NCBI GenBank assembly: GCA_964106645.2
Contig: OZ067043.1
Length of the DNA: 64,000 nt
Direction: 5' to 3' (one strand)
DNA from: Podarcis pityusensis
Lineage: Eukaryota
The translations under genes and the position numbers were made by a program. The notes under the pieces are model-generated. The model was given only the letters and a program-made list of their open reading frames with translations. It searched no databases and was not told where the DNA came from. This document shows, piece by piece, positions 40,510-58,369 of the stretch. Within the stretch, counting starts at the first letter, position 1. Every line of letters starts with the position of its first letter.

Positions 40510-40596
40510 CTGTATGACGCTTCCATACTTCACCACGTCCCCATGCACCTTCTTATTCTCGGTTTCGTTCTGCTTCTGCTCCATCTGTGCAGCATG
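40510..40596 (-). CDS. ITPR3: ITPR3 exon 4 (87 nt)
   Basis: HAAQMEQKQNETENKKVHGDVVKYGSVIQ; ag / gtatgg. Confidence 0.95.
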
Positions 40597-45496: not shown

Positions 45497-45618
45497 CTGA
45501 AGTTTCTGCAGCAGTACCACATCGGCTATTTTGTCCTTGTCCTGTTTGGTTTGTTTGGCTTTCCAGTATTGTTTCTGGGCGGAGTAGCGGTTCATGGGAC
45601 ATACTCTAAAGAGGCAAT
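45497..45618 (-). CDS. ITPR3: ITPR3 exon 3 (122 nt)
   Basis: [41 protein letters not shown]; ttacag / gtatga. Not visible in the ORF track. Confidence 0.95.
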
Positions 45619-45638
45619 CTGTAACGAGAAGAAGTTAG

Positions 45639-45907
45639 TGTTAAGTTGTGGGTGAACATATCAGACGACACAGCGATTCTTCAAACAGCTCTTGTTTATT
45701 CACAGGCCAGAACAGAACTGAACTGAACTGAAGCGTTTAGCCAGCCTGCTTATATAGAGCTCCACTAGAACGCAACAGTAACCATTTTCTGTAACTATCC
45801 AATCACTGAACATCACTTTCGATCCCTTATTTGCATATGTAGACCTGAGTGAAAACTATCTACAGTATCCCCCTGCTGGCCCAGGGTGAGAACTTCAGTA
45901 CATAACA
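45639..45907 (-). mobile_element. Solo LTR, 269 bp
   Basis: TGTTA...TAACA termini; perfect 5-bp TSD gttag (45634-45638 and 45908-45912); on the minus strand, in order: ATGCAAAT, ATTGG, TATATAA, AATAAA. Confidence 0.85.
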
Positions 45908-47792
45908 GTTAGCAAGCGTTAGCATGCTAAAACCACAATTCATAAGAACATAAGATGAGCCTGCTGGATCAGGCCCATGGCCCATCTAGCGCATCCTGTT
46001 CTCACAGTGGCCAACCAATTGCCTGTGGGAAGTCTGAAAGAATTACATTCTTCTAACGCTCACCACTGATTATTAAGAGCTGCTGCTCACCAAATTATTC
46101 TCTTTCTACTAATGTTAACTTTCAGGTTAAATACGATGTAAATGTTACATATCTGAAAAGTCTGGAAAAGACAAGACTCGTAGCTGTGGGGGTCCACCTT
46201 CCCTTGTGTCACTGCTAGTGTCTAAGAGCTATGTGAGAATGCAAATCCTTCTACAGCTTTTAGATGCTAGAAAAAGAGGGACGTTTTTCATTATCGCCAT
46301 CTCTCCTGTAGCTCTCAAATGCTAGGAAAAGAGATTCTCATACATCTTTTAGGAAGCAATAGCAATTCCTGCAAATGTAATGGCATGTACAGCTTTTAGG
46401 CAAGGATGGAAAAGTTCTATTAAGCAGTAAGAATAATTCTTCTTCACATTTGACCCTGAACAAAATGCATTCTCAAAATAAAGGAGGGTTGAGAAAGAAT
46501 TAAAATCAGCCTTGCAATGTGTGAGCATTGGGCATTGGGGGCAGGGGGAAGAGTTGCACTGTGACCATTTTTTAAAAGGGGGAACTAGCAACCTTGTATT
46601 TAAAGGTAGATCTACCCTAGAAAGTTCTTTAAATTCCCCTGCTTTAAGATTAATCCAATCCTTGAGTGATATTTTTGCCCCACCCTGGCAAAACATGTGA
46701 AAATTGCTTTGAAAATTGGCCTAGCAGTGATTTCAATTGTTTGTTAGAAAGACAGTCCCAGGTGGATGGAACCAAAGTCCTTGATGGCTCTTAATTGCTC
46801 CTAAAATAGCACCACAGAAACTTCAGACACTAGAAGAAAATAATTTCCATTCTTGGATCCCGTCCCAAGTTGCTGGCAAACCTGCTGTCAGTTATTCATC
46901 AGAGAGTGATGAATAAGCAGGCGCAAAACATTATTCTCACCAGTTCTGGAAGCAAGCCATTTTTTGGTTGTCTCATCCCACACGACTGCTTCTGCTATTG
47001 GCAAGTCCCACACCAAGGACACCTCACCTCCCATGCCAGGGGAATTCCTTAGCACAGGGTTAATGCATTTGGTGACCCCCTTTCCCCCTCCCCCAGTTTT
47101 GCTGGACTCCCAACTCTCATTGTCCCCACACAGCATGGCTAACCATCAGGAATGCTGGGAGTTGCAATCCAATAGCATCTAGAGAGCATCATATTGGAAA
47201 CCCCCCACTTTAGCAGGTCCTGTCTCCTCCTCATGAATTAGGACCAGCTTCTCACAAACAGCAGACTGAGTGGTCAACCTCTGCCTGGTCTGTACTGTTC
47301 TACTGCTGGTAGGTGCTCATAGATGGACAAATGCCCAGATTCAATATTCACAAACAGACAAACCTCACACACAAATGCTTGTACATAGAAAACTACAGGG
47401 AGCTTCACACAAAACAACCTCTCATGTACTGAACATCTGTGTGAAGGGCCTGTGGGTTCTTACTGTCTCTCAGTACAAGAACTGATGTGCCCCAATGCGT
47501 CATCAATTGCCTGTGCTGGAGATTAATGGTACAATTTCTTGTTTTTCATACATTTTCTCCTCCATGTAACAAGTTGGGAGCCCATATATAGTTGCTATTG
47601 TCGATTTGACGTCTGAGGAAGGCCAGATAAGAGTAAGGACTGCATCAAAAAGTTTCAAAATTCCTACCTGGAAATCAACCCTGCACCCTCACCAAAGACC
47701 ATCACTTAAATAAAGAAGGGTTAACCCAGAGAATAAATGGAGCTTGAGGGTACAGCAATGCACTGGCGTCACCAGAGATCCAGCAAAAGGAA

Positions 47793-56728: not shown

Positions 56729-57153
56729 CAGTGGTGCCCCGCAAGACGAATGCCTCGCAAGACGGAAAACCCGCTAGACGAAAGGGTTTTCCGTTTTGGA
56801 GGTGCTTCACAAAACGAATTTCCTATGTGCTTGCTTCGCAAGACGAAAATGTCTTGCGAGTTCCTGCAGGGTTTTTTTCCTTTTCCCCCCCTTTTTCCCA
56901 AGCCGCTAAACCGCTTATCAGCTGATGGCTAAGCCGCTTATCAGCTGATCTTTAAGCCGCTTAACAGCTGATGCTAAGCCGCTTATCAGCTGATCGTTAA
57001 GCCGCTTATCAGCTGATCTTTAAGCCGGCTAAGCCGCTAATACTGTAGCGCTAAGCCGCTAAACCTCTAATGGGCTTGCTTCGCAAGACGAAAAAACCCG
57101 CAAGACGAAGAGACTCGCGGAACGGATTCTTTTCGTCTTGCGAGGCACCACTG
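56729..57153. mobile_element. Tc1/mariner-type MITE with an internal tandem array
   Basis: TA|cagtggtgccccgcaagacgaa...ttcgtcttgcgaggcaccactg|TA, 22-bp TIR with one mismatch. Confidence 0.88.
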
Positions 57154-58298: not shown

Positions 58299-58369
58299 CT
58301 CGAAATTTCTTGGGTGGGTTATCCAAATCACCAGCTGTTGGTTCCACCACACACCGGTCATCCACCAGC
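58299..58369 (-). CDS. ITPR3: ITPR3 exon 2 (71 nt)
   Basis: (G)[23 protein letters not shown]; tttttcag acceptor, gtaaga donor. Confidence 0.95.

Follow-up and report, generated by a model that had tools for sequence, protein, structure and literature searches.

Which nucleotides serve as the branch point of an old coding exon once an LTR has come to lie almost against its splice acceptor? The question arises in the 64,000-nucleotide stretch of Podarcis pityusensis DNA analysed here (the window), in which a solo LTR occupies the very end of intron 2 of ITPR3 (Table 1). The insertion is real and old, a new instance of a kind already known. As to its effect, we see about an even chance that the LTR moved the strongest of the original branch points away and that splicing is kept by two adenosines, one at −23 in the LTR end and one at −17 in the TSD; both splicing and the choice of branch point are predicted here from motifs only.

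Table 1. Features at and around the 3′ end of ITPR3 intron 2, in window coordinates; negative positions are counted upstream of exon 3.
Feature	Position	Strand	Remarks
ITPR3 exon 4	40510..40596	(-)	
ITPR3 exon 3	45497..45618	(-)	122 nt; translation matches human ITPR3
Intron 2 CAG acceptor and short pyrimidine tract	45619..45633	(-)	host DNA, unaltered by the insertion
TSD 3′ copy, CTAAC	45634..45638	(-)	candidate branch A 45635 (−17)
Solo LTR, 269 bp, Ty3/Gypsy family	45639..45907	(-)	same sense as ITPR3; TGTTA starts at 45639, TAACA ends at 45907
LTR-terminal TTAAC (YTNAY)	45640..45644	(-)	candidate branch A 45641 (−23)
LTR AATAAA	45695..45700	(-)	ITPR3 sense; 82 nt to the acceptor
LTR TATATAA box	45750..45756	(-)	
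TSD 5′ copy, CTAAC	45908..45912	(-)	A at −291 at present
Second host CTAAC	45918..45922	(-)	best U2 match; A 45919 at −301 now, −27 without the 274 inserted bases
Unclassified high-copy repeat	45941..46040	(.)	family D18; seen from contig depth and loose ends; ends approximate
ITPR3 exon 2	58299..58369	(-)	donor side of the 12,680-nt intron 2

Translation of exon 3 gives 40 aa that match residues 55-94 of human ITPR3 (E 5e-20; PF08709). Exons 2 and 4 have AG/GT ends and consistent phases, and exon 1 lies beyond the window. Since exon 3 measures 122 nt, its skipping would cause a frameshift. When compared by eye, the paralogous acceptors before exon 3 in the two remaining IP3-receptor genes bear no evident likeness to the end of ITPR3 intron 2. 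Further up the same intron, a tandem array of 22-23-nt units is found (window 56882-57055, family D5).

A sequence-only reading of this DNA had described a 269-bp TGTTA...TAACA element lying 20 nt before exon 3 and flanked by a perfect 5-bp TSD (gttag as the strand is presented, CTAAC on the minus, or gene, strand), and both the element and its TSD are found as described, at the positions given in Table 1. The ITPR3-sense orientation of the LTR was read from the PBS side. That reading had also proposed looking for paired copies flanking gag/pol, and the search was successful, with thousands of copies in the genome and four paired elements. The last 16 bases of the LTR have 2,548 exact genomic copies, a PBS of the TGGCGACGAGG type adjoining 72 of these LTR ends, and among the matches listed all 41 to the LTR are at 95-100% identity. 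The first three PBS-bearing regions were rearranged and had no paired same-strand LTRs; a later set comprised the regions around 18 PBS-bearing copies, and four of these contained paired LTRs, which are 96.1-97.7% alike. Three of these four elements span 4.2-5.0 kb with long ORFs, and a purine run (polypurine tract, PPT) precedes the 3′ LTR in all four. Pfam searches of two loci, L050 and L041, give the domain order gag, RT, RNase H, integrase, and the RT is closest to that of Ty3 (E 5e-58 for Ty3 Gag-Pol, versus 9e-31 or weaker for retroviral entries). Perfect 5-bp TSDs are present at 21 of 30 loci of the family. The element is a Ty3/Gypsy solo LTR. It shares with other LTRs of this type the TG…CA ends, the 5-bp TSD, the parents with PBS, PPT and gag-RT-RH-IN, and the large excess of solo copies; there is no difference in kind, and the ITPR3 position alone is notable.

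Three other classes of element were considered and rejected. An endogenous retrovirus does not agree with the lack of an env family among 9 ORFs, with integrase as the last long ORF of both L050 and L041, and with an RT that matches Ty3 best. A MITE or DNA transposon is contradicted by the presence of just 5 complementary terminal bases and by the existence of LTR parents, and an introner by the location of the element within a 12,680-nt intron having a host donor and a host acceptor. The PBS 15-mer has 690 genomic matches compared with 72 beside an exact LTR end, which suggests the existence of related families sharing the primer. There was no tRNA gene among the six of these matches that were scanned; the priming tRNA may be tRNA-Ser. 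Within the family, locus L054 (G000:C14:43903500-43913400) carries a copy of 955 bp that has both LTRs, PBS and PPT, an internal deletion and the TSD GTTAG, and that is possibly a non-autonomous derivative. In addition, a rearrangement recurs in which an inverted partial LTR lies about 100 nt past the PBS (e.g., L032:9347-9808 and L039:223-676, and also L047).

The presence of a branch-point-like pentamer as the TSD calls for little beyond the habits of the family. CTAAC is found next to 11 of the 2,548 LTR ends, with a perfect TSD in 9 of the 11. This count is to be compared with 13.7 expected from the target-site profile of the family and with 2.6 expected from base composition, the profile consisting of 59 sites (sample of 60 of the first 62 copies listed, from one contig, two known PBS copies being excluded). 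The target bias of the family explains the CTAAC TSD. Branch-point targeting by the element was rejected, as the other 10 CTAAC-followed ends have no AG in the next 20 nt and the number of CTAAC-followed ends agrees with the target bias in general. If 200,000 introns are assumed, about 4 sense copies would be expected by chance, without selection, at ≤25 nt from an acceptor, while CTAAC-TSD copies falling on a CTAAC of the branch window would number 0.03-0.16, again with assumed intron numbers. The coincidence is uncommon, yet a genome with numerous TE families may produce it by chance.

As had been proposed, the gene is a conserved one and the insertion lies in its branch-point zone, with a CTAAC retained beside the pyrimidine tract in the 3′ TSD copy. 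On the other hand, the statement that this CTAAC stands at the expected branch distance does not hold. Human branch points are located for 90% at 19-37 nt upstream of the acceptor, with a median of 25 (PMC4315302), and the adenosine at −17 is outside this range, as are 10% of the human sites; the distance rules applied here derive from human data. Besides, the earlier account lacks a third CTAAC, the second of host origin in Table 1. Scoring of the candidates by pairing with the U2 sequence of the same genome gives 19 H-bonds and −8.4 kcal/mol for this displaced host site, which would be at −27 without the LTR. The TSD site at −17, a YTNAY with LTR sequence now on its 5′ side, forms at present 14 H-bonds (−5.2 kcal/mol), and the LTR-terminal site at −23 also 14 (−4.6 kcal/mol); the two are equal in H-bonds, with the better duplex energy at −17. 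The LTR-end candidate combines a YTNAY motif, a typical distance and the absence of any AG before the acceptor. Indeed, no AG lies between the acceptor and −61, where the first upstream AG is found, and none is added by the last 40 nt of the LTR. This property depends on orientation: the last 40 nt are free of AG in 94 of 97 copies in the ITPR3-sense orientation versus 0 of 97 when reversed, and the reversed orientation has a YAG within the last 25 nt in 96 of 97 copies. Use of more than one site has precedent, several branch points having been found in 95% of deeply sampled constitutive human introns (PMC5959240).

The proposal that the TSD regenerated the branch point can be retained only in part. 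A CTAAC does remain by the pyrimidine tract; however, any insertion with a TSD leaves the downstream copy continuous with the host DNA beyond it, which means that this CTAAC was never lost and "regenerated" is an overstatement, and it is a better host CTAAC that was displaced. Considering that the best U2 match has been moved away, that the TSD adenosine is at −17 and that the LTR provides an adenosine at −23 without a new AG, replacement of the branch point appears somewhat likelier than its regeneration. The two host CTAACs lie within a 10-bp near-tandem duplicate (window 45908-45927, 9/10 alike). That the −27 CTAAC is ancestral is an assumption, and as one unit of a near-duplicate it could postdate the insertion. 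A variant of the adenosine at 45919, in the displaced CTAAC, occurs in run X8, where a single contig with about half the local depth carries it; taken alone, this hints weakly at relaxed constraint.

From its perfect TSD, the insertion had been judged recent and possibly polymorphic, and two sets of data fail to support this judgement. The first concerns the TSDs of the family, examined in a sample chosen by exact 16-mer match: they are perfect in 47 of 54 solo copies (47 of the 57 copies with both ends), and in 14 of the 15 copies less than 88% identical to the ITPR3 copy. Perfect TSDs are therefore the rule at low identity too, and to find one is no sign of youth. The ITPR3 copy itself has 2 private substitutions with respect to the 10 closest copies, and the nearest sampled copies are 1.5-2.3% away. 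The second set concerns the junction between exon 3 and the LTR, which was looked for in 4 of the 20 runs containing the stretch (organisms labelled A, B, C and E) and is present in all four; among the runs listed as containing the stretch, none is of RNA, which has no bearing on expression. In each run, one unique contig reads from exon 3 through the TSD into the LTR end, with 24 LTR bases in X2, X4 and X12 and 6 in X8; these overlaps are shorter than the 31 bases per side required for bridging, and the contigs cover the exon-side junction only and show presence, not absence. Each of them aligns over its full length and stops where the sequence turns repetitive. The differences listed for X2 and X12 lie outside the LTR bases, and the divergence of the flank from the window goes from 0% (X2) to about 3% (X8). 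No contig break at the TSD, as expected if empty and filled genotypes were mixed, is seen in the four runs, nor does a 274-nt skip, the mark of an empty allele, occur among 15 of the 63 joints. We infer that the insertion, shared with related organisms, predates the split of the sampled lineages. The perfect TSD and the intact termini would agree with a recent insertion that is still segregating, or with an assembly artefact confined to one individual, but perfect TSDs accompany all sampled divergences, the copy has its private substitutions, the junction is found in every one of the four runs and no skip is seen in the 15 joints; this explanation is largely refuted, and we consider it highly improbable.

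In the displacement and replacement that we favour, a full-length element of about 5 kb would have inserted at a preferred target 5-mer, and LTR-LTR recombination would then have collapsed it to the solo LTR. The main branch point before the insertion would have been the host CTAAC at −27, and U2 would now pair with the LTR-terminal TTAAC, with the TSD CTAAC, or with both. The LTR allele would have spread by drift ahead of the split of the sampled lineages, with no new function. Counting against such tolerance are the location of a sense LTR near an acceptor and the retention of its AATAAA and TATA motifs. A more far-reaching version, which we put forward only tentatively, would have the native main branch point of the frame-critical exon 3 evicted and the integrase-facing terminus of the LTR (TTAAC, −23) acting as the working branch point, by now needed by the host. 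As sense copies end in a branch motif and have no AG close to it, the family would be pre-adapted to persistence in the nucleotides just before an acceptor.

Alternatively, the CTAAC at −17 could have been the dominant branch point both before and after the insertion, the LTR having landed in effect just before it, as a bystander, and the TSD copy alone being of importance. CTAAC is the canonical core, it keeps five Watson-Crick pairs with U2, no present-day site has a better duplex energy (−5.2 versus −4.6 kcal/mol), and the authors of BPHunter argue that branch points nearer than −21 may be under-called (PMC9636908). Nevertheless, 90% of human branch points lie in a range that does not include −17, and without the insertion a better-placed and better-pairing site would be present 10 nt further up, stronger U2 pairing being what tends to win between competing sites (PMC4315302). 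We regard a lasting role of −17 as the dominant site as possible but doubtful. A further alternative, which we deem improbable, is that the LTR alters ITPR3 output through intronic polyadenylation at its AATAAA, through a cryptic acceptor within it, or through an LTR-started transcript entering exon 3. The sense orientation and the intact TATATAA and AATAAA are in line with such effects, as are a cryptic CAG near 45845 with 12/20 pyrimidines upstream and an in-frame ATG in exon 3; moreover, mouse mutagenic LTRs near exons are in sense in 20 of 26 cases (PMC3088655). An LTR-started transcript could begin translation at this in-frame ATG (45595), without the N-terminal part of the suppressor domain. 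However, AATAAA and TATATAA are each found in 91 of 97 family copies, so that their retention shows no selection, two out-of-frame ATGs come ahead of the in-frame one, the richest pyrimidine stretch belongs to the true intron 2 acceptor (14/20), and the LTR allele persists across organism labels.

Several published systems resemble the ITPR3 site in one respect or another. In human and mouse, sense LTRs near acceptors are the most depleted class and are often mutagenic (Zhang et al., 2011; PMC3088655). The ITPR3 LTR, in sense and within 20 nt of an acceptor, falls in the under-representation zone defined there. It differs in being a solo copy that is retained under several organism labels and whose sense end, with a branch motif and no AG, is predicted to be benign to the acceptor. 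TE ends that form a branch sequence, in whole or in part, are known from pseudoexons (PMC7951965) and from an experimental demonstration (PMC7969005). In these cases too, a TE end lies upstream of a host tract and AG, but those of the two papers are mutation-activated pseudoexons or engineered insertions, whereas at ITPR3 the exon served would be an old coding one needed for the reading frame, and the LTR might take the place of the native site. The canine merle SINE in PMEL is likewise located at an intron-exon boundary, with a TSD that duplicates a splicing signal and a branch point that is moved; it differs in being a SINE with a 15-bp TSD containing the acceptor, in being polymorphic and in disturbing splicing (PMC7349775). 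Introners share with the ITPR3 case a TSD-borne splicing signal that makes the insertion safe, but they derive from DNA transposons and make new introns in exons (PMC11282704), while the ITPR3 LTR lies inside an existing intron. A literature search whose coverage left most subscription papers outside returned no paper combining solo LTR, branch point, splice acceptor and intron, none on a TSD regenerating a splice site, and, for ITPR3, lizard and retrotransposon, none on the ITPR3 site.

If the LTR is no more than tolerated, it adds another solo LTR to those known from introns, and its presence or absence could serve as a marker for the clade. If its end is the working branch point, the locus would represent a clean natural swap of a core splicing signal of a conserved coding exon for TE sequence, and the harmfulness of sense LTRs next to acceptors would need qualifying as a rule. 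Even so, it would be no new kind of system, as both TE-derived branch sequences and TSD-borne splice signals have already been published.

Finally, the end of ITPR3 intron 2 seems to have been struck twice by repeats: the unclassified high-copy repeat at 45941-46040 ends about 28 nt past the 5′ TSD copy, and would be about 48 nt from the acceptor on an LTR-free allele.
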